NCBI RefSeq assembly: GCF_037042905.1
Contig: NC_087256.1
Span: 26,350,001-26,414,000 of the forward strand
DNA: 64,000 nt
Source of the DNA: Lytechinus pictus
Taxonomy: Eukaryota
Direction of reading: 5' to 3'
Both the position numbers and the translations under genes were made by a program. Position 1 is the stretch's first letter; each line of letters opens with the position of its first letter. The notes under the pieces are model-generated. The model did not search any database and was not told where the DNA came from. It worked only from the letters and a program-made list of their open reading frames with translations. This document shows positions 986-64,000 of the stretch, one piece after another.

Positions 986-1146
986 GAGATAAACCACACT
1001 TTACTGAACAAAATAGGCCTATTCGTAACTTTGTTATGTTTTCAAAATACAAAGAAGGGTCTCTTTAAATTTAACTCGTAATTATAATTCACACGCTTCT
1101 CACAGGAAATAATCAACCGACGCTGAACCAATAATTTTCCGTAGCC

Positions 1147-9805: not shown

Positions 9806-10037
9806 CACTCTAAAAATCAAGGATTTAAAATAAATCCAGCTCAGCTGTGGATAGTGACTAGCTGAATGTTGGATTTATTTCAAATCTTTAGGATTAACTA
9901 TCAAATTTCAAAAGATTTAAATTCAAATCTTTTAGATTTATATTCAAATCTACAAGGTTTAAAACTAAATCTAATATTCGGCTGGTCACTATTCGCGGCC
10001 GACCTGGATTTATTTTAAATCCTTGATTTTTAGAGTG
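9806..10037. mobile_element. Palindromic MITE with TA TSD
   Basis: TA|CACTCTAAAAATCAAGGATTTAAAATAAATCCAG ... CTGGATTTATTTTAAATCCTTGATTTTTAGAGTG|TA. Confidence 0.85.
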
Positions 10038-11207: not shown

Positions 11208-11362
11208 GGACCCGTTTCATAAAGAGTTACAACTGTTGTAACTTTGCCATTATGGCAACTACCATGGTAACTTTGATTTTGACTGGCTGCTGAGCCCTGT
11301 TGCCATGGTAGTTGCCATAATGACAAAGATACAACAGTTTTAACTCTTTATGAAATGGGCCC
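11208..11362. mobile_element. Short palindromic MITE (second copy at about 3058-3192)
   Basis: CCCGTTTCATAAAGAGTTACAACTGTTGTAACTTTGCCATTATGGCAACTACCATGG arms around a GATTGGCTGCTGAGCCC core. Confidence 0.75.
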
Positions 11363-31252: not shown

Positions 31253-34200
31253 ATGAAGTGCCTACTGGTAGTCCGGAATCCTAGCATGCCAGACATTGTC
31301 TTCATGTGGAATGATTGTGAGTTCAAGGCGCACCTTGCCAAGTCTGCATATGATCGGGGCCTGACAGAGGTAACAGACATAGGCAACAAATCCCCCCCCC
31401 CCCCATCTCCCCCTCCTCTTCCTTTTCTCTTACTCTTTTTCTTCTTTTCTTCTCGTTTTTCTTCCTCTTCTTTTTCTTGCTTCTCTCTTCCTCCACTTCA
31501 TTTTATTAATTTTTTTCTCCCTCTCATCTTTCTGTTCCTTCTCCCCCTGTTCCTTCTCCTTCTCTTGCTCCTTCTCTGCTATCTTCCACTTCGTCCTCCT
31601 CTGTTTCCTGCACATTTGATATGAAATTAGTTAAATCTTATTGGATATGATGCAACCCTAGATATGGGGTACATGTAGGTCCATACGTATTAGCCTACTC
31701 TTTGAAGGTTGTTATGAAGATCATTTGATGGTAAAGCCAAGACTATTAGTGGGAGAGAGTATAGGGTGTGAGAATGAGGAGTTTAAAAGCCTCCTTTTTA
31801 AAAAGTTTTTCCTGATCTTGCTTCTTCATGTGTCTGTATTAAAGAGCTTGGTTCAAAAAAATACTACATAGGCCTATACTTTAAATGAAAAATAGAATCA
31901 TTGTTGTCATGGTAGTGCTTCATAAGAGTGGTGTGTAATTATGCTCAACTTTTGGTTTTTAATATGGTATATAAGCTTAATAGCTTAATTTGAAAGGTAT
32001 ATAAGATAAGACTTGTGAGAGATAATAATTTTACAAACGAAGGTACGTATTAATTTACAATTGTTATACATTACACAGGTTTTCACTACACATGTATGTG
32101 CAGTGAACTGAAAACCTATTTGGTCAAATGCCAAATGGCAATACATTTATAATCAGTATGATGATCAGATCTTTGCAATCGCCTTTCCCATTTTTCTTTC
32201 ACAGCCAGAGGAGATCCTTGGGGACTTAGACATCAGTGTCGTGACGCAGTATTTCTCGCCGATCATCGCATCCCATGGACTTCTCTCATCGGAAATGAAC
32301 TGCCCTTACTCCAGTATTACCTGTAACAATGACTTCATCTTTGTCATGAAACAAGTGAGTAGTGTGCTACGACATAGTATTTCCACTACCTGCTATGCAC
32401 TTGGCAGGATTGCCTAGTAATCATTATGATACTTTTGGCTTAATTTGAAAGGTATCGTGAAATTTGAAAGGGCGCGTCGTGGTCAAGTGGTTCTGACTCT
32501 CGCTTTTCAAACAGAGGGTCGCAGGTTCGAATCCTAGCCATGGCGTGTGGCGTGTTTTCCTTCAGCAAGATAGTTATCCACACTGTGCTGCACTCGACCC
32601 AGGTGAGGTGAATGGGTACCCGGCAGAAAGAAATTCCTCGAATGCTCGAGCGCCTGATCAAGGTAGCTATGCTAAAGCCGGGGTAATAATAATAACATTA
32701 TCATGTTAAGCAGGGCCCGCTGGTAGAACAGTTTTCAGAACTGAAGTGGCTTCCCTTGGTAAAATATGACATTATTATAATTATTATTACTTGGCAACCC
32801 CCTGTCCTTGTATAGATTCTACATTTTATTGCATCGCAAAGCTTCGTTTCAATATAATTAATGCATTTTATAAAATGGTCGAATGATGCTCCTCAGGGAG
32901 TGGATATGGTGCACCTTATGTGTGAAATCGTGATGGATTTGATTACTGGGTTATATTATACAAATAATGAATGTTTATGAGTGCAATGGACAGAATACTT
33001 CATGAGGTTAAAGATGAAATGATCCATTCTACGAGGCGTATGCAAGTTGAATGGATCATTATTTCATCTTTCACCAAATGAAGTATTCTGTCCATTGCAC
33101 AAATGAAAAAGCATTCATTATTTGGTTTATATGACACCTAAAAATTGAGGGTTTTTTCCATATGAAATTTATGAATTTGGATGCAAAACATGCTCCGAAT
33201 GCAGTGCGAGTTCGGTCTGTTGATTTTTACGTCATTACAACATGCGCACTGGTAGTGCCTGCAACTGCAGTCTCGGTGCGCGCGTGCAATGGACAAAATC
33301 GTATGGATCCAAAATTGCACGATGAATGGATAAAAAAATGCATGGTTGATGACGTTGTTGGGACGGATCTGAGTATTTTGGTGAATTTGGTGGAGAAAAT
33401 ATTATGTTTCTTTTTAAAAACAAAGACAAATCAAACACACCAATCAATGGGACTAGGAAAAAACAGGGGGAAAACTAAACAAGCAACAACAAGCACGGCG
33501 ACTCAAACACCCCAACTTTTTAGCTAAACGTGATCATTCAAGAAAAATAAGCACTTGACAAAATAATTAGTTCGATGACTTCGATTTATAATTAAAATGA
33601 TTCGAATGTTTTCTTTGACAAATTTACAGAGTGTTTACAACTCAAAGAAATGCCTGTATGATATATCAAATATCTGAAGACAGTAAATAAAGTTATGTCG
33701 TATATTCAAAGGAATTATAACAGAGCAATTAATTATTTAATAAAATAGGATATAAACTCCAAAATAGGCCAAAGCGTTGAGAAGTTGACAGTTCGATCTA
33801 CTTGGCGAATTGAGTTCGACCTGAACTTGGAATGGTGGAATACGTAGCTAGGCCTGTCGTATACAACGGAGAGTGGAAAAGCAGTCTAGATGGATCCTCG
33901 ATCGATGTCATGTAGGACAAAAAATCGTCTATGGTGAGGGTCTCAGTGGAACCTGACAATTATCAAAATAAAACAAACAGTGTCCTAATACACTTATCGT
34001 CGTCGAACACAGATAAACGACCTCAAAACGTGTAAAGATATAATTTATCATCTCATAATAATGACAGTGAGAATTGTCTATTTAGCAGCAATTCTAAACA
34101 AAATATAAAAGTACATCATGTAAAACCAGGCTATATGCCTTTAAGAAATTCGACGAGAATGACTTTCATAATGTCAAGGTCAAATAACAATGTTCACTAT

Positions 34201-37200
34201 CAAGTATAGCATACATCGGAAAACTCTCCATAATACCGACAACTGAAGATCGATTAAATACTAAGCTGTCTGCAATGACATATAAATCAACGTAAATAAT
34301 TTCAAAGATCTATTTTTGCTTATAATATTCGACATTTCATGTGGATGACACTTTATACAAAAATAAAGTTGTCTACAAACGTACTCGGCATAATTTCTTC
34401 AGTACAAATACTTTGTCAAGAAATTAGTTATATCAAATATCTCTTTTCTCTTTTTACTATAAATGTTGTTATAAATATTAAACGTACATACCCGATAAAC
34501 ATCAGGAAAAAGAAGTAAAAAGTCAGCTAAACCAGGAGTCCATTAATTCTCCTTTACAAAATGACGAGCCCAAACAGCATCGGTGAAGTACGCTGTCGGG
34601 AGCTAAGCCGACGGTCTCGGGGGAGATATTGGTTCAAATCCCCATAGAAAAAGATGTAACCAAAATTGAACACAGACGACTCTGCTGAAGTATCAGCAAC
34701 CGGGCTTTTTTCAAGAGTCCCGTATCGTTAATTAAGAACGCACGAAACCGCCCTTACAGGGCGAGATCTAATTGGTCATTTTTCGTAACCAAGAAAAACA
34801 TTATTTACATATTATTACTAAGTCCGTGTCTCTTAGGGTTCAACACGTATTGGGAATGCTTTCTTTTGAAATTCACCTGCTGTTCCGGAAATACTGTCTT
34901 TAATAATAACAGGTGGAAATTTCTTTGCGTCCAACTAAAAATATCCAAATTGCTTTTGATTCTTTTTTTTTACACAGTATCACATAAAAGTGCTTTTGAT
35001 TTTTGTTTTACACAGTATCACATAAAAGTATTTCAGGCTTCTTTGATATCCTAAAAATAAACTCAGAAATTGTCACTACATAAAATCCCCTCCTAGTAAG
35101 GAAGTCATGAATATGTCTACTTACGACAAGCTATTTACTATCAACAGAACTACACAGTATAATAGTCATACATAATTATGATAATTAATTAACAAACTGC
35201 AATATAACGTTCTGGAAATCGAACATATCGTCCAGATCGAGTTTTTCGGATAGGTGCAGTGGGTGTACTCGTGCGCGAACTCTGCACTGCACTCTTTACC
35301 GCAGAGCTTGGAATTCTGCCTTTAACGATACTTTAACGATAACTTTAACGAATGTATGCTACTTTCAAACGATCTATGCAAATCTGATCGCGTTTGCCAT
35401 CAATGTCAAGCGTGAAAAAGCGGTCTTTGCGCTTTAGCACCTTATACGGTCCTTTGTATGGCTGTTGTAGCGGTTTGCGAACAGAATCTACCCTAACAAA
35501 TACATGCGAGCACGAGAAAAGATCTCTAGGGATATGCGTCGATCCTTGCTTCGCTCTAGTAGGGGTAAGTGTACATGACGCCATGTGTCTACGTAACCGG
35601 GATATGTAGTCACTCGGATCTACATCAGTTCGCTCAGCCGTAACGAACTGTCCGGGTAATCTCAGAGTTGTCCCGAAAACTAGCTCTGCTGATGAGCATG
35701 ACAAATCTGCTTTAATGGTAGAACGGATACCCAGGAGTGTCAAAGGTAATTGTTCACTCCATCGAGAAGGATCCTCGTAAGCCTTCAAAGCAGCCTTAAG
35801 TTGACGGTGAAATCTCTCTACCATCCCGTTTGCCGCAGGATGATAGGCGGTTGTTCGGATGCGGGTTGTACCTAACAACTTAGTTAGTTCCGCGAAAAGG
35901 CGTGATTCGAACTGCCTACCACGATCGGTGGTGACAGAGCTGGGTGCACCAAACATGGCAACCCACCTTTCTACGAAGGTTTTGGCAACTGTTTCTGCGC
36001 GGATATCGGTTATCGGGATGGCTTCCGGCCATCTGGTAAAACGGTCTATACACGTAAGTAGATATGTATAACCATTCGAATGGGGCAACGGACCAACGAG
36101 ATCCAGATGAACGTGTGCGAAACGCGCATCTGGGGTACTAAAAGTCCCTTGTGGGGCTTTTACATGTCTATTAGTCTTTGACCTCTGACACGGTAGACAT
36201 TCTCGGGCCCATTTGCACACATCCTTATTAATCCCGGGCCATACGTAACGAGCGGTAATCGCACGCTGTGTTGCTCGGACTCCTGGATGAGAGAGTCCAT
36301 GGATAGCATTGAAAACTGCCCTCCTATGAATCTTCGGGACGAAAGGACGGGTGAGTCCGTGAGAAGTATCGCATACGATCGAGCCACCAGTGGTGAGCCT
36401 TGGTACTTTTTTGAGCACCATACTAGAATTGACCTCTGAATTGAGATACGCTTGCAATTCTGAATCGGTTTCTTGTGCTTCCGCAATATCCGTGAAATCG
36501 ATCCGAGATTCGGTATGCAAGGCGCTGATATCGGGTCGAGATAGGGTGTCAGCCACCACATTGTCTTGACCTTTGACATATCTGATGTCTGTGGTGAATT
36601 GCGATATGAAATCCAACTGCCGAATTTCGCGGGGGCTATGACGATCTGGCTTGGCGTTTAATGCGTATGTTAAAAGTTTATGGTCGGTATAAACGCAGAA
36701 AGGACGACCTTCTAGCATGTACCTAAAATGTTTAATTGCCAAGTAAATGGCCAGCAACTCTCGCCCGAATGCGCTATACCTTGTTTCAGCAGGTAGCAAT
36801 TTCCGCGAGAAGAATGCAATTGGCTCCCATGCATTGTCGTGGAGTTGCTGAATAACTCCACCAATAGCGCGGTCTGATGCGTCGACCATCAAGCTCAGAG
36901 GATAATCTGAATTTGGATAGGCCAATAACGTAATCTGCACTAGTTTCTCTTTGACTTCAACGAAAGCGGTCGTACAAGCAGGCGACCAATCTAGCGGTTT
37001 CTTAGATCGCTTCTTACGATTGCGCAGGAGGTCCGTGAGAGGCATGAGGATATGCGCGCAGTTAGGTATAAATCTACGGTAAAAGTTCACTAACCCGAGA
37101 AATCCTCGCAACTGCTTCAATGTCGTGGGGACAGTGCAGTTCCGAATCGCATCCACTTTGTCCGGGAGTGGACTGACTCCATCGCGGTTGATACGGTGAC

Positions 37201-40200
37201 CTAGAAATTCTAGCTCCGATCGGCCAAAAACGCACTTGTTTGGGTTGACGACAACACCAAACTCCCTAAGTCTTTCAAAGAGCAGACGTAGGTGGCGTTC
37301 ATGCTCTAGCTCACTATCGCTAGCTACAAGTAAGTCATCTATATAAGCATATACGAACGGTAGTCCACGAATGACCTGATCTATGAACCTCTGAAAAGAT
37401 TGCGCAGCATTACGCAGACCGAACGGCATTCGTTCGAATTCATAAAGGCCAAAAGGTGTACATATAGCCGTCTTGCAAATATCGTCTGGCGCGACGGGTA
37501 TCTGGTGATATGCACGAACTAAATCTATCTTGGAAAATATGCGCTTTCCATTCAAATTCGCGGTGAAGTCCTGAATATGGGGTACAGGGTAGCGGTCGGG
37601 TACGGTAGCCTTGTTAAGTGCCCTGTAATCACCGCAAGGTCTCCAATCACCGGCAGTCTTTTTCGGCACCATGTGTAACGGCGATGCCCATTGGCTACTA
37701 GACGGCCTAATTATGCCTACATGTAAATCAAGCATATGCTGGAATTCATTACGAGCTATGTCTAACTTGTCTCCGGTGAGTCTACGCGGCCTAGCCGTAA
37801 CGGGTCGTCCTCGCGTTTCAATGTGGTGTACCACATTATGCTTAACGTCCTGCGAACGGTATACGGGTATCGTGATATCAGCGTATTCATCACGCAACAT
37901 CTTCGTGTACGCATCAATAGCTTCAGGCGTGTCAAATACGGGACTAAGTGACACAGTGTCCGTATGTCTACCTGACACTTGCATGTTCGTTAGGGGATCA
38001 ATAAGCCTCGGCTTTGCCATATCAATAAGAAATTGAAAATGGTGCAGAAAGTCCGCACCTAAAATAGGCATGGTTACGTCAGCTATGATAAATATCCAAC
38101 GGCAGCTGCGACGTACGCCTAAATCTAGCGTAAGCGACTGTTGTCCGTAAGTTGTGATGCGCGAACCATTAGCTGCGCGTAGTTTCAAGGTAGAAGGTTT
38201 AACCCTCTGTTGCTTTGTCGGGAGGATTACCGACACAGCCGCGCCTGTGTCAACCAGAAATTTCTTTCGCGAATTAATATCATTAATGTAAAATAGGCGA
38301 CTATCCGGTTGACCAGTTGGGTTTGTCGCCCCAACCCTCTGGTCTATGCGTTTCCCTGACTATTCCAATTGCAGGGTGCCTTGCAGCGATGCGCGTTCTC
38401 AGCATATTGAGAATGATACCAACAATATCCTCTATCTTCGGGCGATTCACTGACGGGCGTGGAATCACGTTTATCACGAGTCTTGCTTCTACTACGATTT
38501 CGACTACGACTACGGTCGTGTTTCAATTGCCCTACGGCTGTGGCTAACTCGCGAAGGAGCTTTGTCAAATCCGCAATTTGCCTTACAAGGTTTGAATTCG
38601 CACCCTGTATATCTCCGGATTGGGCTGGCTTAACCGTGATAGCATGTGACCCTGCATCAGTCACCGGCGCCACGGTGTTCACGACAGGCACGTGCGCTTC
38701 GAGAATTCTATCTGCCAATGCGGCCAGATCCGATAGCGCTAGCGACTCACTCGTGGAGGCTAAGATCAGTCTAACATTAGGCGGCAAGCGTTGTAAGAAT
38801 AACTGCCTAAGTATACCGCTTTCTAATTTCTGATCTCCGACGAGTTGTTCCATGCGCCGTAATAATTGAGAAGGTTTTCGGTCTCCGAGTTCTTCTTCTG
38901 TGAGTAACATTTGTACTCTTCTCTGTTCCGATTCCGTCGTTCGCGATATGATCTTTTTCTTTAGCGTCGTATATGGCTCACTAACAGGGGGGTTTATCAG
39001 GACGTCGCGAATGTCCTGTGCTACCTCGGGTGGTAGTGTCGCGATAACGTAAGAGTATTTTGTACTCTCAACTACGATATTGCGCGTGGCAAATTGGGCT
39101 TCCGCTTGCGCGAACCATACCTCCGGATCGTTTCGCCAGAATGGCGGCAGCTTTAAAGCAACTGCTCCAAGTATGCTCTCAGAGTCAGCAGTAGACTTCG
39201 CGTCGGCATCTTCTTGTGACATTGTGAAAGAGCGCGAGCGTACAACCACTGCACTTACCTATTACACTGTTCCTATATTAATAAGAATATGACAGTCTTA
39301 TTCTAATTCCTTCAACTCCAATGTGCGTTATCTATCCTGAAAGATCACGTCTTTATATGTATATTATATAAAATCTGTTTCGCCGCTATAAGGGTTAAGG
39401 GTTACTATTTTGTAGCTCCCTTTCAGATCACGTCGGGATCACCATTTTGTTGGGACGGATCTGAGTATTTTGGTGAATTTGGTGGAGAAAATATTATGTT
39501 TCTTTTTAAAAACAAAGACAAATCAAACACACCAATCAATGGGACTAGGAAAAAACAGGGGGAAAACTAAACAAGCAACAACAAGCACGGCGACTCAAAC
39601 ACCCCAACTTTTTAGCTAAACGTGATCATTCAAGAAAAATAAGCACTTGACAAAATACATTGTAATTAGTTCGATGACTTCGATTTATAATTAAAATGAT
39701 TCGAATGTTTTCTTTGACAAATTTACAGAGTGTTTACAACTCAAAGAAATGCCTGTATGATATATCAAATATCTGAAGACAGTAAATAAAGTTATGTCGT
39801 ATATTCAAAGGAATTATAACAGAGCAATTAATTATTTAATAAAATAGGATATAAACTCCAAAATAGGCCAAAGCGTTGAGAAGTTGACAGTTCGATCTAC
39901 TTGGCGAATTGAGTTCGACCTGAACTTGGAATGGTGGAATACGTAGCTAGGCCTGTCGTATACAACGGAGAGTGGAAAAGCAGTCTAGATGGATCCTCGA
40001 TCGATGTCATGTAGGACAAAAAAATCGTCTATGGTGAGGGTCTCAGTGGAACCTGACAATTATCAAAATAAAACAAACAGTGTCCTAATACACTTATCGT
40101 CGTCGAACACAGATAAACGACCTCAAAACGTGTAAAGATATAATTTATCATCTCATAATAATGACAGTGAGAATTGTCTATTTAGCAGCAATTCTAAACA

Positions 40201-43200
40201 AAATATAAAAGTACATCATGTAAAACCAGGCTATATGCCTTTAAGAAATTCGACGAGAATGACTTTCATAATGTCAAGGTCAAATAACAATGTTCACTAT
40301 CAAGTATAGCATACATCGGAAAACTCTCCATAATACCGACAACTGAAGATCGATTAAATACTAAGCTGTCTGCAATGACATATAAATCAACGTAAATAAT
40401 TTCAAAGATCTATTTTTGCTTATAATATTCGACATTTCATGTGGATGACACTTTATACAAAAATAAAGTTGTCTACAAACGTACTCGGCATAATTTCTTC
40501 AGTACAAATACTTTGTCAAGAAATTAGTTATATCAAATATCTCTTTTCTCTTTTTACTATAAATGTTGTTATAAATATTAAACGTACATACCCGATAAAC
40601 ATCAGGAAAAAGAAGTAAAAAGTCAGCTAAACCAGGAGTCCATTAATTCTCCTTTACAAAATGACGAGCCCAAACAGCATCGGTGAAGTACGCTGTCGGG
40701 AGCTAAGCCGACGGTCTCGGGGGAGATATTGGTTCAAATCCCCATAGAAAAAGATGTAACCAAAATTGAACACAGACGACTCTGCTGAAGTATCAGCAAC
40801 CGGGCTTTTTTTAAGAGTCCCGTATCGTTAATTAAGAACGCACGAAACCGCCCTTACAGGGCGAGATCTAATTGGTCATTTTTCGTAACCAAGAAAAACA
40901 TTATTTACATATTATTACTAAGTCCGTGTCTCTTAGGGTTCAACACGTATTGGGAATGCTTTCTTTTGAAATTCACCTGCTGTTCCGGAAATACTGTCTT
41001 TAATAATAACAGGTGGAAATTTCTTTGCGTCCAACTAAAAATATCCAAATTGCTTTTGATTCTTTTTTTTTACACAGTATCACATAAAAGTGCTTTTGAT
41101 TTTTGTTTTACACAGTATCACATAAAAGTATTTCAGGCTTCTTTGATATCCTAAAAATAAACTCAGAAATTGTCACTACAACGTCATTGCAAAATGGGCT
41201 GAATGAATGATATCAAACAACCAATCAAATCACAAGGATCTATCTAGGTGTCATATAATAATTATTAAAGGTAAAGCACAGAAACACAAAGCATAAAGCT
41301 ATATATGATTAATTATTATGAAATCTGATCGTACCTTAAAGAAGGTTAGGCTTATCAAGCTTGTTGCTGCCTGACAGAAAACAAAAACATAGTGAAAAAT
41401 TGGTTATATAAGTCCGTAAGTCAGTTCAAGACCCTACACAAAACCTACCTGTTTAGTAGATGATTTACAAATTGTGGGTCGGTCAATTGGAGGTGCACAC
41501 CAGTTTTGACTTTTAGTATTTGTATTAGTTGTGTCATTTTTCCCCCTAGAATGAACCATTTTAAGCAATACAGTGCGCTTAGAAATGTCTGTAGTACATG
41601 TAAGCGCCTAATAAATGTTATGAATTAATATATATAAAAATTGGAACACATAAGACACAGAGGCCCATATTCTGAAATCGGGTTTAACTTAAACTCAGGT
41701 TTAAAGTTGTAGTTTAAGTATGGATAGCCAATTGTACATAAATCACTAACAGTAGATAGATATATCATATTTCAGCTCATTTGGCTCTCAAATCATTCAT
41801 AATTGTCTAGGAAGTATAAATAGATGATTGTCTTCACCATTGAAGAATCGGGAAAGAGCACAGTAAACATAAGAAACATAAAACTTAATAAAACTTTTGA
41901 CACTTTTGGCTTCTCATAATTTTAGCACAGAGTTAGACCATGGTCTAAGTTAAACCTGACTTCAGAATACGGGCCATAGAATACTTGGAAGTAAAGCATA
42001 CAACGTGCAATCAAAAGAATACATACTTTGATATTGTGTTATCCAAGTAAAATTCATGTATAAAAAAGATTACAATTATGATGAGCTTAATTCAAGAAAG
42101 TTTAATCTAGATGATTCCTTATATTTGGACGGTTATTTCACCATCCATGGTTTCAGGGTCTATCTGAAAAAAAAAATTGTAATGGATCAAAATAAAACTC
42201 GGACTCTGATTGAGATTGGCATCAAAGTATCAGTCTCTTTATCTTTGTACCCTTTAAGATTAATCTCAATTTTTTTAGTTTGAATTTGAATCAATCGCAA
42301 CTCTTTGTATAACATGGGCCAGAAGTCCAAATATGCCACATAGATGTACCAGCCAAGATAGGGTTGTGAAATCTCATTCCTTGACAGTTATGCAACAGAT
42401 TTATGCCAAAGATTAATTTTGTACACCTTTGTAAACAAGGGCCTGTCTTTTCTTTTTTTTCGCAGTTTGGACAGCACCTGTACATAACTGTCAATGGAGA
42501 CGGAGAGGAGACTGAGCAATTCCTTCACAAGAAGCTCTTGGTCTTTCATCGCATTATTCAGTTCTTCTATGGTGCAGCAACAGAGCAGTAAGAACATTTC
42601 TCACCTTCTGTCACAGTTTAATCTTGAACATTGAATACAGATAGAATAATTGGAGACTAAATTTGGCCTCTCACTGGTCACCTATTAGTCTTTGATTATT
42701 ATGTCTCTTATTGAGGTTGGTTGTATTTGTTGCTCGTTTTTCATTTAATCGGGTTAACGGTGTATTCATGTAACAAGATGGGTATAATGCGGGTATACTC
42801 CTAGGCATACAGAATGCTGCTGCTCGCCTGCTAATTGGTACAAAGATATAGGACCACATCACCCCTGTTCTCACGGAGTTACATTGGCTTCCAATTAAGT
42901 ACAGGGTCAAATTCAAAGTACTCCTCACCGTCAAGGCTGTGCATGGTTTAGCTCCAGGGTATGTGACCTCCCTCATAGAAAAACGCTGTGTGCGTCTTGG
43001 CTTGCGCTCATCTGGTACTGGTGTCACTCTTCATGTACCCATCACACGCGATATTTCCGAAATGAAAAAAGATAACGCCGCAAAATTTTACGACTTTTCT
43101 TTGAGTCTCGCGCAACTTTTGAGACCAAATTCGCGACATATTGGTATGGCATCCTAACCCTAACGCCACTTGACTTTTAATGAGACGATGTCACGCTGAA

Positions 43201-46200
43201 AATGGCTCATTTTGATACTTTGTGTACAAAGTCTATGGGAAATGAAATTCATAAAAAGGGTGATTATTTATCATTCTAATTGGTCTGCTTGATTAATTTA
43301 GTTTTTAAATGGTCTGTAATAATTTCCATTAAAAAAAACAATGATAAACAAAGATAAAAAAACAGAGAAATACATGAGGAAAAAATTCACTTTCACAATT
43401 TTTCTTTGTGGAAACCTTTAAATTAGATTAAAAAGATGACATATGGAAAAAAAAGGAAGAAAATTTGCAGTGAAATTGGGTGTTAATATGCAAATAATGT
43501 TTTTCCCGAATAAATTTGAATATTTATTCATAATAAATAAAAAATTATCATTTTCAGATTTTTTTTTTGTACTTGCTTGTAGTTTATGTGGAAAAGAATG
43601 TACATGCCAAATTTCGGCGCGACCACGCAAACTGCGGCCAAGATCAGAAGGGGGGCCATAATGCCCCCCCCCCCGCCCTCAATACATCTCTTCTTCTATC
43701 ACTCCATGCCTGAGGAACTCCCTCCCTTCTTCGCTCCGTGAAATTGACAGCATTGAGCTCTTCAAATCGTCTCTCAAAACTCACTTATTTCAGCAGTTGT
43801 GTAGTTATTAGCCTAATTGGATGAGTCTGCGCCTATGAATGTTTTTTAAAGAAATATGGTGCAATATAAATGCTGTGGATCATCATAATCATAATGCTTA
43901 TTATGTACATGTTCATTCATGAGGGTGTGCTGTGTAATTAGGGACAGTTTATCTGTTTCATTTCTGCAAACCTGTACATGTAATTCCATTTCAAAGTTAA
44001 TTTGAAGTGAAAATTCCATTTTGTTATAGAAAATGTACATGTACACAGCAAAAATATGAATTCCTTTTTGCAAAGTTACATGTAAATTCAGTGAATGTTC
44101 AGATGAAAAGTAAAGAATGGATTTCCTGTTTTGATTTACTTGCAAATGGAAAATCTCTGTCCCTATGTAATGTAATGGGATTTTTACAGATACATGTATG
44201 TATGATTATTTACATCTGAGGATCATATGGCTTGAAAAGAGCAAAGACCAATGCCTTGAATGCCCTATGAATTGGCCTTACTGCCTCTTTCACTGGCTTT
44301 GGATATTTCTGGTGTCCTTTTTCATTTTCCAAATTTTACTGGAATTATAATTTTTTTTAATTAGAATTTTTAGAAATGTGCCCTATAGAAAAGTGCCCTT
44401 GTCCCTGAAAATATAAAAATTTTAAAAATTTCATCATGTGATTTTTTGTTGTTGCCCTTTTCAGGTTACGTAAGGATAGTCCAAGTCAGAGAGATGTATT
44501 ATGGGATACCTTAGGCTCTGTCTTGGACAGCTGGTGTGAGCTGTACCACAGGGAACAGTCCTTTCTTTTGGAGGTGAGTCACATACTTTGTCGCAGAGGG
44601 GCAGATCCAGGATTTTCCAAAGGTGGGGGGTCGCATTTCCCCGAGAAAAAAATTGACAAGCAAAAAAAAATGTAAGGTCTTCAATTTCAAAAAGGGGGGC
44701 ACAATTCTGTTTGAACAGCATTTTTACAGTATTACAAATTTTCATTATGCCTCTCCCTGGATCCGCCAGTGCTTTGTCAGTATCTTTAAAAGTATCGTTT
44801 TCGTACTTGAAAATAGAAAAAAAATAATACAGATATTGCGTACCTAGAGATTGCATATAGGCCTACATGTAATATTTTATTTCCCTGTCAGATGTATGTT
44901 CTTCCCAAGGGATTATGTTATGCATGGAGCACACAGCGCTGAGGGAAAATATTCTCCTGAGGGGAAAATATAGTTTTGGATCGGAGGGAAGCTGGAATGT
45001 TATTTATTGAACAGATAGACTAGACAATATCTGTCATATCGTATACTGTGTTGTATGTAGTTTCACCATCAGAGTTTGCTGCAGCTTTGATACGTCCTAA
45101 AAGAAAAAACACGGCTTGCGTGTGCTTCATCCAAACTTCGTGTACACACTAGTTTGTGCATCATAAAAGCAAACTTCCTGACTGTGCAGTTTCAAAGCAG
45201 TGAATGATGTCACCTTAATTCCACCCAGGCCTGAGATTTCCCCGATATTTATCGGGTTCCCGATATTTTTTCACCAACATAGGTGGTCTTCGAGATCGAT
45301 GTAAATCCCTATTTAAAATTAAGGGGGGTTAGGGTGTCTATTTTCAATGCCTTATTCGCAAAAATTGCTAGAAAATGAAGGGCACATTGGGCCCAAATTC
45401 ACACAAAGTTATAAGTTCTGGCAACTTGCTGTCGTTACTTTTTATGAAAATTGCAAATGCATTCGAAAACTTGATTCTTCGACGGCTATTTGAAGTTTAT
45501 TGCACACGGTCGGTATTGATCATGGGCGCTGCCATTTTGTATTACCCACCAGACCGTTCGCGCGTTGCAGTGGAGGAAACAGCGTGCACTCCGTGCGCGC
45601 GCGATGGCTGCATTCAATTCATGCATGCAGGCTAGGCGCTAGGATAACCCAGGGAACTCCGGCCCGGCCGCGCCCGCGAAGGGGGCAGGAGCTCCCTGGG
45701 TTAGCGCTAGCCGTGATTACGGTGATTTGTCGATACGGGAGTTCTTCCGTGCGAGCGAAAAAACAAGAAAAGTTAGTGAAAAATTATGGCTTTTCAACGG
45801 AAATTTCTTGATCGAGGTGAAGAGGCGAGGGTGAAAGGGATCGACGCTTCAGTTCGTGAGAAATGGACTTGGAAGTGGGTTGAAAAATCAGTGGATGGAA
45901 GGGTGGCAAGTGAGTGCATACGGAAAATTGAGGATCCCGATAAAGCTTTACTGTACATGGTGTAATAAGGAAGTCAAGTACGTGAATGGCGGCTGGGGCA
46001 TGATCAAGCAACACATGGCCAAATCTAAATAAAAATCATAATCTAGATCTAGATAATAAAAAAAAAGGAATCAATTATCAATTAGATTTAGTTTAGACTA
46101 GATCTATGTAGGTAGATCTAGCCTCACTTATCCAATGTACAACTACAAGGTTATGATATAACCTTGTCCTCAATTAGAAACCATTGTGTGGTGAAATTAC

Positions 46201-49200
46201 ATGAATAAGATTGTCAATGTTTGCCTGTTTTTTCTCGTGATAGAATGGATAAATGTTTGATTTTTTTTTTGGTTCAGTCAGATTTTACTACACAGATATT
46301 TCATTACAAAATATGCCTTGGCCCAAAACTAAACTGAATTCTTGAAATAAAATAATTTTTTTCTAATTAAAAAGGGAGTCTGTGGAGACCCCCTCCGGGG
46401 CGTTGCCCCTGGACCGTTAGGTGCGAGACTATGGTCACTTCGCTCCCTACGTTCACAAAAAACAGATATTTTTTAAAAGGGCCACTCTCAGGCCTGATTC
46501 CACCGTGTACTTTACAATACAACACAGTTATAGTTACTGAGTAGATGTCAAATCCCAAGATACATGTATTACACCTTGCAGCTACATGTAGTATCACATG
46601 ATGGCATATTGACTTATCACTGATTAAAATCTTTATAAGTAATAGTAATAGTAAATCTAAAGCTTTAACCCTATCTAGGCCGGGGTATTTTGGGAGTTCA
46701 TATGGCCGGGGAGGGGGGGGAGGGCCTCCCAGGCCTGTCATCCCTCCAAAGCACGCGCCTATTACCAACATATTTCATTCTCCCTCGCAAACCGATCCAC
46801 TGCTTCTTCCAAACCCAACATCTGCATCAAGTCCTCAAGTCTCCTTCCGATCCACAACCTACAGTTGAGGCCAGAAGTTTACATACATCCACGAAATTTA
46901 AAAAAAAGTTGACACTTGCCAAACATAAAATTTACTCTATCTTATAAAATATCTCTGCTATCATGACAGATTTGATATCAAACAAATGAGTATGTCATGC
47001 CCCTTCATCACATTGCTTTGTTTTCAGGGGCTGAAAAATGTTTAGGTGTCATTTTTCCCTGCAAAATTTTCATATTTTAGACAAATTAAAAATAAAAACT
47101 TGACAAAAACATTTCATATCTGTGCTAGTTACTTCTCAACACAAACATTTCAGATACACTTTTTTGTTCAGTGGTGACATATCATGATAGGAAATGCAAT
47201 ATACTGCGTAAATCATAGATTTGACTTTTATATATTTCTATGGAACGATGTTTGAAAATATAATAGCAAACGATAGAATACATTTGGCACAAATAATGCT
47301 TTTTTCTTCAAAGAAAATACCACCTGAAATATATTTTAATCCCAATGGCATCCCAATCATCTGAAAAAACTTAAAATGCTCATTCATTTGATACCAAATT
47401 TGTCATGGTAGTATTGATATTTCTGAAGATATAGTAAATTCAACGATGTTTGGCAAGCGAACAAATTTCACTGAATTCGATGGGTGTATGTATTATAAAA
47501 CTTTTGGCCTCAACTGTATGTAATATCAGGTATTATAGCATTCTACATGTTATATTTTATTTTGTCTGCATTCTAACCGCCTTCAGGCTGTCGAGACTCT
47601 AGAAGTCAACCAAACCCTGAATGAACTCTGCATCGGTCTCTTGGAATCTGTCCTTCTCAAGTTCAGGTCTGCTGGAGATAAGAATGCAGCCCATGCCATG
47701 TTGATTACAGGAGCTAAGCTCTTGCAGCTCTATTCAAGGTAATCAGAATTTGATGTTTTTTCTTCATTTTTTCGCAGTCAACCTCACCCACGATCCCACG
47801 GGTGCTAGAAAATTTGGTTCATAAACAGTTCATTGAATCGTATAGACGGTGTGGAGTTTGACCAAGTGGATATTTGACGAAATAGGTATACTATAACCTG
47901 ATTGAAAATTAGACGAAATGGTTAAAGGGCTAATTGGCAATTTGACCAAATAGTAAGCAAACAAAAGGGTTGTAAACTAACCCGGATTATATCATGTTGA
48001 ATGAGACCAAACAAGTACGTGTAGATGCTGACCAAGTTGCCGTTTACCCTTTTATGTATTCCTTTTTTTTCCAGTCGTAATGCACCCGAGCTCCACCAGT
48101 CTGACATCCTCCTGATTGTGACGCTGGCTCGGTCCCTCTTCCCTGCACCAAAGGGCCCTCTGCAGGAGATACAAGACGAAGCATCGTCTCAGAGAGGTGG
48201 AGGAGGAGGATCCGATAGGGAGAACAGACAGTCTGGTGTCTTCAGCGATGGGGAGTTCATGAGTGCTGGAGAAGGAGGGGGTTCAGATGGGGTAAGATGT
48301 TTAGAAAGAATGGTCAAGTTCACCTGAAGAGGTTGTAAACAGGGAAAGTGTCTTCAAAATGATCAATATTGTTGTCATTTTTATTTTTGTTATTAGTATT
48401 ACTGTTAGTGTGGTCATCGTTACTGTTTGTCTGATCATTGATATTATCATTAGTTGTATTTTAAGTGATAGTAATAGTAGTACAAGCAGTAGTCATAGTA
48501 TCACCAGCAGCATTCAGTAATAATATTAGAAGCCCCAGTAGCAGTTTTAACCATTGTAGTAGTATTATTAGTAATATAAGTTGTAGTAATAGTAGTAGTA
48601 AGAGTAGTAATAGTGGTAGTTGTAAAACTAGTCATAATGGTAGTAATAGTAGCAGCAGTAGTATTGTCAGGGATGTAGTCGATGCCGTTACTTCCGTGTC
48701 ACAAGGCCACTGAAAAAAAAACTTCTCCTGTAGACTTTGTGTACATGACACGGCTGAGGCCAAGGTCGGCAAAAATTGGCTTCAAGGCCGGCCATGACTT
48801 CATCCCTGAATGTCATGATTATCAGCATTATCGACATCACTCTCTGCTTTTCCTGTTCAGTCACAGTACTATAGTCCAGCCAACACGCATGAAGACCGGA
48901 GCCCCTTGCCATCAGATGACCCGGAAGAAGAGAAACCGGACGCCAGTTCCAATCCTCAAACCGAACAAGAACCAATACACGATGGAGAGCAGCAAGGGTC
49001 ATCAGCAGGTCGAAGGTCAAATGGTGAAGGTCAGAGGTCGGGGAGTACGTCGGAGGATTCTCATACGGATAGCTGGTGTGACCTGGCCGGGGGTCATGGA
49101 GCAGACACGGCTAGTATACCTTCCATTGACTGCACTCCAGGTGGGCGTGTCCCGGAACCCCCAAACTCGCAAACCATCTGGTATACGCCCATTGAGGTAA

Positions 49201-52200: not shown

Positions 52201-55200
52201 TGCACAAGGGTGTGTTGGAGATTTTGGCCCGTATTCTGAAGTCAGGTTTAACTTAGACCATGGTCTAACTCTGTGCTAAAATTATGGGAAGCCAAAAGTG
52301 TCAAAATTTTTATTAAGTTGTATGTTTCGTATGTTTACTGTGCTCTTTCCTGATTCATCGATGGTGCAGACAATAATCTATTTATACTTCCTACACAATT
52401 ATGAATGATTTGAGACCCAAATGAGGTGAAATATTATCTCTACTGTTAGTGATTTATGTAACAATTGGCTATCCATACTTAAACCACAACTTTAAACCTG
52501 AGTTTAAGTTAAACCCGACTTCAGAATACGGGCCTTTGAGTGTGTGTTCTGGGACTCATTAGTTCAAATCAATTGTTACTATGGAATGCCGGTGATGCCG
52601 TGATTGATTATCTATATTTTGATATAATTGATTTATTTTCCATTAAAAGTCAAATTATGAAATACGATACATCGAACATTTTAAAAGAAGCTGTACAAAG
52701 TGGAGGGGGATCTTGGCCAACTTCAGGAGGAAGAAGACGATGTTGAAGAATGAGCAGCAGAGGTGGAGGAGGAAGAAAAAGAAGAGAAGGAAGGGTAAAT
52801 GAAGATCTAACAATGAAGAGAAACTAGAGAATAGAAAAAGAAAATATACGTGGAGGAGGATGGGTAAGTGAAAAAAAAAGTAATAAAGAGAAACACAAAT
52901 TGTAATCCTTGAATCATTGTATTTTCTGTGATTGCCTATGCAGATCCAAGGTGTACAGCAAGTCCACACAGGTCTCATCAAGCAGTGGACGATCGCTAAG
53001 GGGTGTGGCTTGACAACAAACCAGGGATCGAGTGCTTCTATGGCACCAAGGTAAGTTAACATGGAACATGTTATGGATTGACTTAAGCAGTGAAGTTCAA
53101 TTCATTAAATGTTTGCTTGTTTATAAATTCAGGCTAGTATTGACAATCTGTGAGCGAGCAAGTTGGTGGATTTTTAAACATTGGAAGGAGAAACATATGG
53201 AATCACCATTCAGAGTATTTGTAGCTCGTTGGGAGGGTCATTCATTTCATTCAGATCGTTTATTTTCCTTTTTGAAAATTTCCAATTTGTTTTGTACATG
53301 TTCAAATTTATCCATTGATGGCCATTGCTTACAAACTCTGAACCTTGGAGTAAAGCATTCCTTAATTTTCGCACAATGTCTCTCAATTAATCCAGACTAG
53401 AATCCATTCTCTCGGAAATGGGCAAAACCCTCAAGACCATCTTCACCCGCTGCTACGTCCACCGCAACGCCCCCCTGATACGCCCCCCATCCCGCTACCT
53501 GCCGGTCATCGGGGACGTGCGTGCATCCCTGGAAGACTCCCTGACCCTCTACCACGAGTACCTTGCGGTGCGGGCGGAACGCAACATCACCATGACCAAC
53601 TACCTGGAAGACTTTCCGGGTCTGGTGCACTTCGTCCATGTGAACAGGACCACCGACCAGGTGCTGGCGCCCTCTATCAGCGTCAGCTGTGAATCGGAGC
53701 ATGTCGGTGGCAAGAAGAAACTTCTCCAAGAGAAGGTGAGTTCTCTAGATATACATGTAGGCCCGTATCCTGAAGTCAGGTTTAATTTAAACTCTGGTCT
53801 AAAGTTGTGCTCTAACTATGTATAGCCAATTGTGACATAAATCTCTAACAAGAAAGGTTCATAGTATCAGCTCATTTGACTCACAAATCATTCTTAACTG
53901 TCTGGGAACGATAAATAAGATAGTTGTCTTCATCAATAAAGAATTGGGAAAAGCACAGTTGACGTGAGCAACATACAATGTAAACAAATATTTTGACGTT
54001 GTTGGCTTTCTGTAATTTCAGCACAGATTTAGACCATGGTCTAAATTAAATCCGACTTCAGAATGCAGGCTATAAAGTCAGAAGTCAGAAATCATTCTTT
54101 TATTAAAAATTCTTGAGATACATCTGATCCAATGCTAGGGTCTCTCTGCTCCCTGATCAATTTGATCAAGCTGGTTGCTTGGTCTAGCTAATGATCACTT
54201 TGTGAACAAATGATTCTGTGTGCAACCAAAAGGATGTATTGTAGATTATTAAAGATAAATTCCAGTTGTGGGAACGATCTCAAAATGACTTTTTACAGAA
54301 TTTAATATAATGATGACCGAAGTGTCTGTTTGTATGAATAAAAAATATGTGCCAAAGGATTCTGCAAGAAATTGTGTAATTGCTGAGAAATAAGCAAAAT
54401 AAGCACGGATTCGGTCACTTCCGTCGGGTCTTTATTCCAGCAATAATAATACACTGTCCCACGTGTGCCTATCTGTGTTGGCGATCTTCAGTGTGATCGT
54501 TTTTTAGCTAGATATTATGATTTCACAAAGTTCAGTTTATGTAACTGTACCAGATCTAGATCCACGATGATATATCAATACTTTACCTTGGTTTTACAGA
54601 CTTTCTCACGAATTCAGTGTTTTACTGCAACTACGTTCATTTAGCTTTAAATGAATATCCAACCAACAAAATTTGTCAGAAATTGTGATCAGGAACCTCA
54701 GGATTTTGGATTACTGTCACTTAGTAATATAATTATTGTTATATCTTATATACCAGGAAGATAGTGGATCATTGAGCTCGGGCGGTGGAGTGGGTGGGGC
54801 TTTGGGTTGAGGGAAAAGAGGTGCTTCCTCTTGTCTGCTGTCTGCACCTCATGTTCCGCTGCCTATATACATGTATAATCTGTTTGCAAATATGGGTAAA
54901 AAGGGTAATGCGGTAGGTTTACCAATATTGTCCCCAGTTACTCTTTATCCACTGGCAGCTACCCGCTGCTGTTTGATCAACTTGATGAAGGCTTATACCT
55001 TACCGATCAATGTAGCCCAGTAAGAGGAATTCTGGTACTTTGATCGACCCCAATTACCCCTGATCTACTGCTAGTCCAATCAACTTGATTATTGTAGTCC
55101 TTATTGGTTGATGTAGCTTATTGACTTTGATAGACCCTTTGGCTTTGTGAATTCCACAAATTGTTATTTTTATTCCGTGTGTATAAGGATAACATCTTTG

Positions 55201-58200
55201 ATGTATCTTACTGTTATATGCAATCAAATGTGAAATGAAATGAATGAATTGCCCTTTCTTTCAGGTTTGGAGCATGGTTGAGCAGTGTCACGAGAAACTT
55301 CAGCAAGGCATCGTGATGGAGACGGTCCGAGAAGGAGACTTCACTCTCTCGTATCTTCTGTACTTTGAAGACCCAGGCGTAAGTTGCATGCCAATGTAAC
55401 ATTCAAGATCAGTGTGAGCGTTGGTGCTGAAAGTCGTGATAGTGATGATTGTGATTTTTGTTATTGTACGTGATGTTAAAGAGAGCATGAATGCTTGTAA
55501 GCAAGTAACCAGAGGACCGAAGGCTTATAGTCCTCTCCGAGGGACCTTTTGAAGAGGATAAATCCTGTAGCAGAGGGCACTAGTGCACCAAGTGGGAATT
55601 GAACCTGGGTCATCGGATTGCAAAACCGCCGCCCTGAGATATTACTACACTATCTACCCTACACAGGGGCCAATAAAACAGAGGGGGGGGGGGCTAAACC
55701 CCCCCCCCCCCTTTTTCTTCCAAAACTGTGTCCAAAAACATAAAAATTACCATCTGATTGTGATTTTTTGCATGTTCAGCCCCCCCCCCCACAACTTTTG
55801 GCTCAGCCCCCCACTTTCAAAATTGCTCTGGAGCCCCTGCTACATGTAGCTCCATCACTGAACATTGATTTTACAAAGTAAAACCAATTGCATGACTGGT
55901 GAGAACAGTCTGAGAAGACTCAATTCTCTGGTATCTCCTCTACTTTGAAGACCCATGCATAAGTGGCTCTTTGATAGAAGATTCAAGTTCAGTGGTAGTG
56001 CTGGTGCTATTGTTGAAAATGTTAATTACTACACTGCCTATTCTAGCTCCAACACTGAACATGGAATTAAAAATGTCACCGATTTCTTGACCAGAAGCTG
56101 AACACCAAGGCCCGCATTTTGAGCTTGAGTATAATTTAAACTCTGGTCTAAAGTTGCAGTTTAACTATGGATAGCCAATAGAAGCAGATATCTGACATTT
56201 GACACGCAAATCGGTCATAACTGACTGGGAATGATAAATGAACTAGTTTTTTACATCAATAAAACATTATGAAAGACCAACGTAAGGATTGGAAACTTAT
56301 GTGAATGCAATTTTGAATCAGTTTGGCTTCCCATAATTTTAGCACAGAGTTAGACCATGGCCGAAGTTAAATCGGACTTCGAAATACGCGCTCTAGTATC
56401 ATACTAGCAAGAATCACTTTTCAAGTTTGCACCTACAGTGTATGGCTGGGGTGAAATTGGTGCTACCATCAACACCAGTGGTCAATAATGAACTGGAAAT
56501 AGCCAATTTAATCCTTCACATATCATGTTTCATTAGAATATGGCTGAACTCATAACCAGTAGGTTATAAACATTACATAATAAACAAAGTTGAATCTAAC
56601 GAAGAGCCTGTTTCATAAATACTTTGCCATTATGGTAATCACCATGGAAACCATGTAGATGTTGCATGTATGCAGCCCACATGCATTGAATGACTTTATG
56701 AACTGGTTTATGCCACTGAAAAACTATGGGCATGATACGCATGATTTAAAAAGGTGACCTGAAACCTCCGTTTTTCGTAAAAACCTGTGCTTTATTTCAA
56801 ATATTCAAAAACTTAATGCAAATTGCAAACAAATTTTGCACATTATAAAAAGATAGAATGTATACTTTCATTTGATATAAATAATTGCTCTGGTTTCTTT
56901 CAAAGCTTGAAGTTATGAGCATCTGAAAAAAACATCCAAGCTTCGAACGTAATTATCTCAAAATCTTGTATTGGAGACCAGCCAAGATTTGTGCCTGTTC
57001 CTAAAATCACTGACATGATTTGATTGTTGCAACACCTTTTCTTCCGTCCCACAGGGTCTGCTTGTTTTTAACAGAGGGCTCCCCAAGACTACGAGGAGCC
57101 CAGTTCCTGGTATACTAGCTGGAAAATATTTCAAGTAAGCAATTTGATGGGGTGTTTATCATCTATGCTTGCATGAAAATTGTCATAATTATGATATGCC
57201 ATGAAAAGTTCCTTCTATCTTACCCCTAGTCAACATTATTTCTAACCAAAAAGTAGATGCTAAGATTCTATACCCCAAGATGGGCAATGCAGAAAGTAAC
57301 TCAGATGAATTGTTTGGATTGTAATATCTTTAAATTCTCTGCCCATCGATTAGTGTGTTAATGACTGTAAAATATAATTTATAAGCAAGATCCAGTTTTG
57401 TGTACAAAATTTTTGCAAAAAAATTATCAAACAAATTTGTGTTGTCACTGTTGTTCACTCTCAGATGCATGTCAGATTGTCATAAATTAATTTGATATTG
57501 CTTTGACATTACAATTCATATTGAATCTGTTCAGTTCTGCTTGAAATATCTGGATGAGATTTTTTTTTTTTTTTTTAATTCTCCCCTCATGACAATTTTA
57601 TTCTTAGATAAAATGCACTGCATCAATTCATTTACAAGATGAATGTCTCAGAAAGCAATGTTGTTTAAATTCACTGCCTAAACTGTGGCTATCGTTTTTG
57701 TAGGAAAGAGACGGATGGATTGCATTTTACGGTTGTTGTCATCATCTTACCATCATCTGGGTCGTAGATAGTGACAAGTTGGAAATAGATTCCCTAGACC
57801 AAATGGACAATATTCTCAAAAGAGGTTCCAATCGTACCATGTTACAAAATCATGGAAGATGCAGATTTTGTGCACATAAATTAGGCTTTCATTGCATACA
57901 CTGAGAAAATTCCAATTATAAATGCACACTTTTGGCAAAGGGCACCAAATTTGTGCATGATAATCTGAGAAATCTGCATAGTCCATGGTATAATTGAAAC
58001 CTCTTTTGAGAAAACGTGCAAATAGGTTTATTCCATGTGGTGTAAATTGTAGTCCAAGTAGACCAACTGCTTAATACCATATCAGTCAATTGCGTCTCTA
58101 ATACATTATCATCCATTATTACTTTTGTTCTCTGCAGAGAGGTAGTGGCCCATGCCTTTCCGGGATTGACTGGGGTGACCTGCTGTGAGCTGTTCTGCAT

Positions 58201-58303
58201 CCATCTTTCAGTGGTCCCCTCGCCGATGATTGCCAATCACATCCGGAGGTTAAGGATCATGCTACGCTCTGGCGATGCTATTGCTCCGGTAACCCTGCTT
58301 TGA
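31253..58303 (+). CDS. HPS1: Hermansky-Pudlak syndrome 1 protein homolog (BLOC-3 subunit); 14 coding exons, about 841 aa
   Basis: Exons 31253-31369, 32205-32354, 42466-42587, 44465-44573, 47587-47738, 48075-48291, 48861-49196, 49736-50083, 51874-52041, 52944-53050, 53396-53735, 55265-55378, 57055-57134, 58138-58303; GT-AG, phases consistent, 2526 nt. Blocks recognisable from HPS1: [79 protein letters not shown]. Confidence 0.92.
32471..32790 (+). mobile_element. tRNA-derived SINE
   Basis: Same head (GTGGTCAAGTGG...GGTTCGAATCC) and core as the 23384 copy; (ATT)n tail. Confidence 0.85.
33356..35080 (-). repeat. 3' LTR (1725 bp)
   Basis: Begins TGTTGGGACGG, ends TGTCACTACA. Direct repeat of 39448-41180. 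PPT (AGGAGGGGA on the minus strand, about 35086-35094) is adjacent. Confidence 0.95.
35345..38353 (-). CDS. pol: Retrotransposon Pol (PR-RT-RNaseH-IN), expressed by -1 frameshift from gag
   Basis: The 963-aa track ORF extends upstream without stops through [13 protein letters not shown] (protease) to the gag end. RT motifs [23 protein letters not shown]; RNase H VDAS; integrase HHCC, DDE core and KGPY. Confidence 0.95.
38296..38356 (-). promoter_or_regulatory. -1 programmed ribosomal frameshift signal (G GGA AAC plus predicted pseudoknot)
   Basis: Slippery heptamer 38356-38350 in gag frame; 5-nt spacer; stem GACCAG..GGGTT / AACCC..CTGGTC; loop GGCGAC complementary to downstream GTCGCC. Confidence 0.8.
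38344..39249 (-). CDS. gag: Retrotransposon Gag with CHCC zinc knuckle
   Basis: 301-aa ORF (first ATG at MSQEDAD). [22 protein letters not shown] and [13 protein letters not shown] are typical of CsRn1-clade Gag. C-terminal [18 protein letters not shown]. Confidence 0.93.
39427..39444 (-). promoter_or_regulatory. Primer binding site complementary to the tRNA-Trp 3' end
   Basis: Minus strand TGGTGATCCCGACGTGAT, 3 nt inside the 5' LTR. Matches the eukaryotic tRNA-Trp 3' end (...AUCACGUCGGGGUCACCA) with one G-T wobble. Confidence 0.85.
39448..41180 (-). repeat. 5' LTR (1733 bp)
   Basis: By eye it differs from the other LTR by a 7-bp insertion (39658-39664), one extra A in a homopolymer and one substitution. 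Confidence 0.95.
41661..41976. mobile_element. About 310-bp MITE family, copy 1 (others at 52226-52535, 53761-54072, 56110-56392)
   Basis: TIR GGCCCGTATTCTGAAGTCRGGTTTAA with a shared internal sequence; four copies in HPS1 introns in both orientations. Confidence 0.85.
42800..43830 (+). mobile_element. Degenerate L2/CR1-group LINE 3' fragment interrupted by another repeat (about 43045-43680)
   Basis: Translation IQNAAARLL...[22 protein letters not shown]...HGLAPGYV, resuming as NSLP...[10 protein letters not shown]. Similar 3' remnants at about 2440-2620 (-) and 20870-21020 (+). Confidence 0.75.
45226..46496 (+). mobile_element. Internally deleted hAT transposon with an N-terminal zinc-finger remnant of the transposase
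   Basis: TIR CAGGCCTGAGA / TCTCAGGCCTG, 8-bp TSD ATTCCACC. Frameshifted remnant at 45786-46032: [31 protein letters not shown]...[fs][23 protein letters not shown]. Confidence 0.85.
50842..51115. mobile_element. MITE (related copy at about 25927-26198)
   Basis: TIR GGGCCCCGTCTTACAAAGA ... TCTTTGTAAGACGGGGCCC. Confidence 0.75.
51255..51845. mobile_element. Kolobok-like MITE
   Basis: TTAA|AGGGGAATCCAACC ... GGCTGGAGTCCCCT|TTAA. Confidence 0.8.
52226..52535. mobile_element. About 310-bp MITE family, copy 2 (inverted)
   Basis: Near reverse complement of 41661-41976. Confidence 0.85.
54253..54646. mobile_element. Kolobok-like MITE
   Basis: TTAA|AGATAAATTCCAGTTG ... CAACT..ATTTAGCT|TTAA. Confidence 0.7.
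55664..55839. mobile_element. Small hAT-like MITE with 5-bp TSD
   Basis: CAGGGGC ... GCCCCTG termini, TSD CTACA. Confidence 0.65.
55880..56010 (+). pseudogene. Decayed duplicate of HPS1 exon 55265-55378 and its flanking intron
   Basis: GTATCTCCTCTACTTTGAAGACCCATGC-ATAAGT versus GTATCTTCTGTACTTTGAAGACCCAGGC-GTAAGT; donor GT changed to AT. Confidence 0.75.
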
Positions 58304-63104: not shown

Positions 63105-63610
63105 TAATCAAAGGTCATCTAGGGGTCAAAATGTCAAATGGTATGAGGTCATGTCCATTCTTTATTCAAGTTTTTGTTCCACCTGCTCTCATTTCTTTAT
63201 TTCTGCATCAATTTTGATCACACTTGGTTCAAATGATTCCTGGGTAATATGACATGTGTTTTCATGGGAATGATTGGGTCAAAGGTCATCTAGGGGTCAA
63301 AAGGTCAAGTTTTTTTCAACTTCTCTCATTTCTTTATTTTTGGATAAATTTTGTGCACACTTGTACATATGATCCTTGGGTAATACCACATGTGTGTTCA
63401 TGAGGATGATGGGGTCAAAGGTCATCTAGGGATCAAAAGGTCAAATGATGAGGTTGTGTCCATCCCTTTTTCAAGTTTTGGTTCAACTTGCTTTCATTTC
63501 TTCATTCCTGTATCAATTGTGTTTTCACAACTTGGTTCAAATATTCCTTGGGTAATACCACACTTGTGTTCTTAGGATGATAAGGTCAAAGGTCATATAT
63601 GGTTCAAAAG
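63105..63610. repeat. Degenerate tandem repeat (about 140-170 bp units)
   Basis: TCAAAGGTCATCTAGGGGTCAAA and CCTTGGGTAATACCACA recur 3-4 times. Confidence 0.75.
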
Positions 63611-64000
63611 ATCGTATTGCATATTTATTGATCACGAAATCAGGCGAGACCTGTGGTTCGTAAGCCACCTTGTTTTATAGTGTGTTTGTAATTGTAGGTC
63701 TTGTTCAAGTTTGTGAACATTTTATTTTCTCCTGTTACTTGTACCAGAGTTTATCTTTAATGAAAAAAAAAAGAAATGATGTATCTTTGGGAAAAAATGT
63801 GAATGAGAGTAAACTTCCTTTGTGTTCAAACAAATTAGCGGTAGTTGTCACAAATAAGCCATGTAGTAATTAGCTTGAGAGCAACTTTTTGAAAATGACC
63901 CTTTTTTCAATTTGATAGGTGAAAGGAGATGTCATCATGAAAGCTTACTTGATATATCAATCTGTGGTATTTAACACTACTAAAGAAACCATTGCATAGA

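Follow-up and report, generated by a model that had tools for sequence, protein, structure and literature searches.

A transposon footprint as such is textbook material, and TA-CA-TG-TA is a common somatic footprint of Tc1. At Tc1 excision sites in Caenorhabditis elegans the target is TA and the break carries two-letter, non-complementary 3' overhangs; in the worm germ line these breaks are repaired in varied ways, mostly by deletions or templated inserts, with 26 distinct products in 103 animals (PMC4490562, in the portion available). The footprints of Tc1/mariner elements are described as 2-4 terminal letters from either end of the element, lying between TAs, and the canonical Sleeping Beauty footprint (TACAGTA or TACTGTA) holds terminal element letters between duplicated TAs, placed there via end joining (PMC6943129, in the sections available). 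LTR retrotransposons bring a second kind of record: when they are dated by LTR divergence, the LTR pair serves as an internal before-and-after control, one that gene conversion can disturb by homogenising the pair and making it look young (plant data; PMC7251063, as far as the available part of the article goes).

The locus compared with these systems lies in a window of 64,000 nucleotides from Lytechinus pictus (NC_087256.1, positions 26,350,001 to 26,414,000 of the forward strand), the whole stretch of DNA that was analysed. It is a retrotransposon that carries two short additions at TA, here called scars, and it is built of the following parts.

33352-33355: target duplication ACGT, left copy, 4 letters
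33356-35080, minus strand: 3' LTR, 1725 bases
35086-35094, minus strand: short purine tract, preceding the 3' LTR
35345-38359, minus strand: pol frame, uninterrupted over 1004 codons; RT, RNase H and integrase follow in that order
38356-38350, minus strand: GGGAAAC heptamer, where pol overlaps the end of gag
38344-39258, minus strand: open gag frame, with an ATG at 39222 and a match to Pfam DUF7041
39427-39444, minus strand: putative primer-binding site, beginning TGG, three letters past the 5' LTR
39448-41180, minus strand: 5' LTR, 1733 bases, with TG...CA ends
41181-41184: target duplication ACGT, right copy, 4 letters

By its LTRs, its target duplication and the order of its pol domains (Pfam matches at residues 231-390, 458-588 and 674-841 for RT, RNase H and integrase), the element is assigned to the Ty3/gypsy LTR retrotransposons. 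Members of that group likewise have TG...CA LTRs, a target duplication, a likely primer site, a purine tract, and gag followed by RT, RNase H and integrase; compared with them the element is an ordinary member, and the two scars alone are noteworthy. The heptamer is likely a -1 frameshift site. As the element lies on the minus strand, the right-hand LTR copy is the 5' LTR, and the assignment of the two LTRs in the sequence-only reading that preceded this work was correct, with gag and pol both on that strand.

Contigs from four of the 21 listed runs (three studies, two organism labels) were aligned to 37500-41650. Loose contig ends at 41181 look like left flank in at least three of the four runs. 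A tandem duplication of ~40 letters near the LTR start (41055-41130) is partly skipped by contigs of three runs. The flanks (33200-33355 and 41181-41260) put the retrotransposon in or beside a short high-copy repeat; contig depth in the 41114-41252 bin exceeded that of the LTR bins by factors of tens to thousands in all four runs. At 32112-32414, a weak Pfam longin match (E 0.002, under the curated cut-off) may mark a host-gene exon close to the retrotransposon.

The two LTRs of such an element are identical upon integration. Pairwise alignment of the present pair gave exactly three events: a 7-letter gap, an extra A in a run (33918/40017) and a C/T difference at 34712/40812, so that the one substitution and one homopolymer slip previously put forward as the sole other differences were confirmed. 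The claimed contrast between CAAAA-TA-ATTAG in the 3' LTR and CAAAA-TACATTGTA-ATTAG in the 5' LTR is exact, and the flanks are identical. The site of this difference and a further site in pol are as follows.

33564-33565: unscarred TA in the 3' LTR, at the same site as the LTR scar (LTR pair alignment)
39656-39664: scar in the 5' LTR, a TA-duplicating 7-letter insertion (TACA-T-TGTA), TACATTGTA (LTR pair and contigs)
37718-37725: second scar, TACATGTA, in pol, in frame, read as His-Val at residues 213-214

Because there is a TA on both sides, the 7-letter gap can sit in three alignment registers, and the LTR pair alone is therefore silent on insertion versus deletion. The contigs bear directly on this point. 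One contig per run covers the scar site, and the insert is absent from it in all four runs (three studies). All of the contig depth at the site shows one form, with four letters omitted and one substitution. This form differs from the 3' LTR by one 3-letter gap and no mismatch and from the 5' LTR by two gaps and one mismatch, giving a count of two events if the 7 letters are an insertion and four if they are a deletion. Contigs lose rare variants, and the four-run result describes the common form only; the fixed differences from the window seen in all four runs show that the source individual is not among them. The comparison supports the view that the 7 letters are an insertion gained by the 5' LTR.

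The claim of a TA-duplicating insertion in the 5' LTR was thus upheld by the absence of the insert in all four runs. It had been proposed that a family carrying the insert would speak for the opposite polarity, and the contig form was found to be closer to the 3' LTR. That the insertion came after integration, as was also claimed, is likely, with an origin from a sibling copy or homogenisation of the LTRs as less probable alternatives. No joint or loose end at 39656, of the kind expected from an element still in place, is among those listed for the four runs. Just past the scarred TA, both LTRs (33566-33571 and 39665-39670) fall 3 letters short of the contig form, and by this comparison the 3-letter indel predates integration. 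A TATAAA at 39684-39689 (minus strand) stands ~25 letters before the LTR scar in the direction of the element, and from its position the scar may fall near the transcription start of the 5' LTR.

The scar in pol stands just ahead of the Pfam RT match. All of the best 120 of 7,053 pol matches are two residues shorter at 213-214, and against a 95% identical relative the His-Val pair is the only gap across 962 columns. On these protein alignments the pol TACATGTA is an insertion, found independently of the LTR scar. It is undated by the LTRs and may derive from a parent copy. The 12 of 104 contig indel rows listed do not include the pol scar; one X16 contig across the site has 16 gap letters, which fits the scar without showing it. 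The 121-protein pol alignment contains 13 rare two-residue insertions, and two of these are scar-like, in this copy and in P0051. The latter, in a relative, is a Tyr-Met insertion opposite pol residue 917 and may be the scar read in a different frame. At both the LTR and the pol scar the added letters are not copies of the flanks: the longest local match is 5 letters, and no longer template lies within 60 bases of either.

The same words are frequent across the window. TACATGTA occurs at 26 sites in 59,716 unmasked bases, against 1.4-1.5 expected (~17-fold); tandem arrays at 58250-60125 and 63100-63620, with a period near 136 bases, were masked in the scar counts. TACA[A/T]TGTA occurs at five sites against 0.93 expected (P 0.003, or 0.015 without the site at 53974). 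The TACAATGTA at 53974 was rejected as an insertion by its gap-free alignment with three sister repeats. One-mismatch neighbours of the scar number 48 against 34.6 expected (37.1 when scaled by 69 control words), an excess matched by three of the 69 control words (4.3%). The flank composition of the 26 scars differs only mildly from that of 4,771 TAs. Their distribution is patchy (variance/mean 1.7, P 0.04), with seven exact scars in 2.6 kb at 43975-46590 and none in the first 12 kb (1-12450). Another scar in the flank of the retrotransposon, at 41595, has almost no contig cover. A TIR element of 320 bases with GGCCC ends is present in four copies that are 68-93% alike (41655-41982, 52225-52541, 53759-54074 and 56102-56399), and a TACATGTA adjoins the copy at 53759. 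A JGI metagenome scan yielded 76 loci of 40-72% protein identity, with 19 TACATGTA in 498,568 bases; the 76 loci had no LTR match and no such scar among the direct-repeat-pair gaps listed, and they therefore provide no test.

Relative to the described systems, the scars differ in several respects. Whereas the Tc1 products of the worm germ line were diverse (PMC4490562, in part), the scars here are very uniform, are present in an assembled genome at a density of about 0.4 per kb and, in the LTR, include an extra middle letter. The Sleeping Beauty-type 7-mer, in contrast, is unenriched in the window (10 against 9.7, both strands), and the scars here would retain letters of both ends of an element.

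Candidate donors were sought through a TIR search of 365 TACA against 355 TGTA sites, which returned 13 pairs with at least 15 of 22 terminal matches. Four pairs had 18-22 of 22 terminal matches and unpaired flanks, where three resampled controls reached no more than 17.

5776-6599: non-coding TIR element, TA|CAG...CTG|TA (TIR search)
9804-10039: non-coding TIR element, TA|CAC...GTG|TA (TIR search)
13172-13273: non-coding TIR element, TA|CAA...TTG|TA (TIR search)
46860-47518: TIR element, TA|CAG...CTG|TA (TIR search)

Two further high-scoring pairs were set aside, their matching running on past the TA. All four TA-flanked elements start with CA and end with TG, and one of the four starts with CAA, which would fit the 9-mer. 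The end type of that element (13172-13273) could yield TACATTGTA by retention of 2+3 letters, as a candidate class rather than a shown donor; a match of scar to TIR end needs letters of both ends, and there is little information in only two or three letters. The ends of 46860-47518 may resemble Sleeping Beauty-type termini. The arms of the four resident elements are only 70-88% alike, so that these elements look old, and no transposase match was obtained in the 103 open frames of at least 75 codons outside the retrotransposon within the window. A TACAATGTA at 13382 stands ~110 bases away from the element that starts with CAA and may reflect a local hop or a coincidence.

The reading that we favour, with a probability of roughly 0.6, is that the LTR scar is the footprint of a Tc1/mariner-type element that inserted after integration of the retrotransposon and was then excised. 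The retrotransposon integrated with identical LTRs. A second element, one that targets TA and has CA...TG ends, would then have entered the 5' LTR, duplicating the TA there. Its excision would have left short 3' overhangs of element sequence on each flank, and end joining that retained both overhangs would give TA-CA-TG-TA from any CA...TG family. Joining both overhangs of any such element would yield TACATGTA, and one word would therefore dominate. For the extra T of the LTR scar there are two candidate sources, a CAA- or CAT-ended element of which 2+3 letters were retained, or a single untemplated base; the scar in pol, with its six added letters, would represent the plain outcome of the same kind of event.

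Several observations stand against a footprint. No element is seen at either scar and no filled allele was found. The resident elements look old, and none of the 103 frames scanned matched a transposase. The 9-letter form is non-canonical: the published forms, as given in the available parts of the sources, retain one end only, and the two-sided join is one that we infer. The varied repair reported from the worm germ line would appear unlike the one dominant scar here. Two insert-and-excise cycles in 7.8 kb at LTR-clock age are improbable under the long-run rate (P 4e-5 to 0.005). Finally, one of the five TACA[A/T]TGTA sites seems, from its alignment, to have arisen without insertion.

Among the alternatives, the most plausible, and still an unlikely one, is a real but older footprint: a sibling-copy scar acquired through gene conversion or recombination, or one in an element with homogenised LTRs, in either case undated by integration. 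Conversion is predicted in 25% of plant LTR pairs, longer LTRs being more alike (PMC7251063, in part), and the LTRs here are long. The open gag and pol frames bound the age loosely, at under 1.9% substitution from stops alone and 0.7% with an assumed frameshift rate, and at an age of 0.5-1% the chance of two scars climbs to 0.01-0.16. However, there is no co-converted difference within 350 bases of the insert, the listed family contigs of organism B diverge about 0.5-3% from this copy, and the insert is in none of the aligned contigs of the four runs. Next in plausibility, and improbable, are scars written at TA with no cycle of insertion, residence and excision, by an abortive transposase reaction or a CA/TG-adding repair route. 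Such a process would make a high rate possible without many donors, and would suit the about 25 excess exact scars beside four old-looking elements and no transposase in the window, the two scars within a very young copy, and the dominance of one word while the Sleeping Beauty-type 7-mer stays at its expected count. Yet such chemistry was not found in the literature searched, the added letters are the terminal dinucleotides of all four TA-flanked resident elements, and a few elements hopping repeatedly make many scars each.

Ordinary break repair ranks below both and is quite improbable; here the 7 letters, copied in as a short templated or fold-back insert or gained by imperfect tandem duplication, would look like a scar by chance. 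Polymerase theta repair is known to yield templated inserts (PMC4490562, in part), a 4-letter inverted match lies 6 bases upstream of the LTR insert and a 5-letter one 41 bases away, and the 9-letter word can arise otherwise, as at 53974. A random 5-letter insert, though, would read CA-N-TG with a chance of 1/256 (uniform composition), and this in a window with TACATGTA ~17-fold enriched; moreover, no template covers the whole insert, and the pol scar is left unexplained. It is very improbable that the LTR difference is an assembly or consensus artefact. All four runs have fixed differences from the window and the aligned contigs come from other individuals, which leaves room for one, but the motif family is enriched across the window with decayed neighbours (48 against 34.6) and is also found in pol. 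A structured, TA-duplicating 7-letter gain is, in addition, untypical of read error. The least probable alternative of all is an ancestral 5' LTR, the 3' LTR having lost 7 letters between two TA microhomologies; this is allowed by the LTR pair alone, but the insert is missing from all four runs, whose form is a single gap away from the 3' LTR.

The claim that such insertions arise at a rate comparable to point mutation fared differently: it is not established, being wrong in the long term, with the recent rate open. One scar against one substitution gives a ratio with a 95% interval of 0.013-78, and an RT or consensus error could account for the LTR substitution or slip. Had the two rates long been equal, one scar per 8 bases would be expected, against the one per about 2,400 observed. 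The fitted long-run ratio of scars to substitutions is about 0.005, and long-term scar formation is likely less than 1% of the substitution rate. By the count of one-mismatch neighbours, a model in which all scars are fresh and a steady-state model are both mildly rejected (P 0.02-0.05 and 0.016-0.03, respectively).

The age of the copy was considered alongside these rates. If the ratio is taken as 0.0033-0.007, the P for two scars within 7,825 bases is 4e-5 to 0.005 at LTR-clock age and 0.01-0.16 in a copy 0.5-1% old, values that ignore the window having been picked for one scar; the pol scar alone has a P of 0.005-0.06 and 0.08-0.32 at these two ages. By the LTR clock the retrotransposon is ~0.03% old, and its scar density of 0.26 per kb is half the 0.52 of its surroundings. 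Two scars in so young a copy exceed the long-run prediction, which leaves room for a recent burst. A burst in which TA-to-TACA(N)TGTA scars enter the germ line at about the frequency of base substitutions is nevertheless doubtful, and if true it would require either that elements hop extremely fast or that scars can be made with no resident transposon involved. Compared with conventional LTR-pair dating, the pair is here applied to the scar of a DNA transposon; a clock cannot usefully be built on three events, and conversion may bias the result (PMC7251063, in part).

Taken together, the LTR insertion is real, polarised and young, it belongs to a known kind, and the same element holds another example. 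No report of a TACATGTA scar field in an invertebrate genome was found in the literature searched, which was mostly open-access. What the locus offers is methodological: two polarised, young examples of a scar common in this genome, one read from an LTR pair and the other from a conserved RT column. These show that the process is recent, and through them its rate could be measured directly. The claim of parity with point mutation, which draws on one or two events, is not established. If the youngest LTR pairs genome-wide proved to be near parity with substitutions, transposon excision would be a main source of small insertions in this animal, bringing in-frame gains of two codons to proteins; otherwise the locus is a fortunate pick from a slow process.
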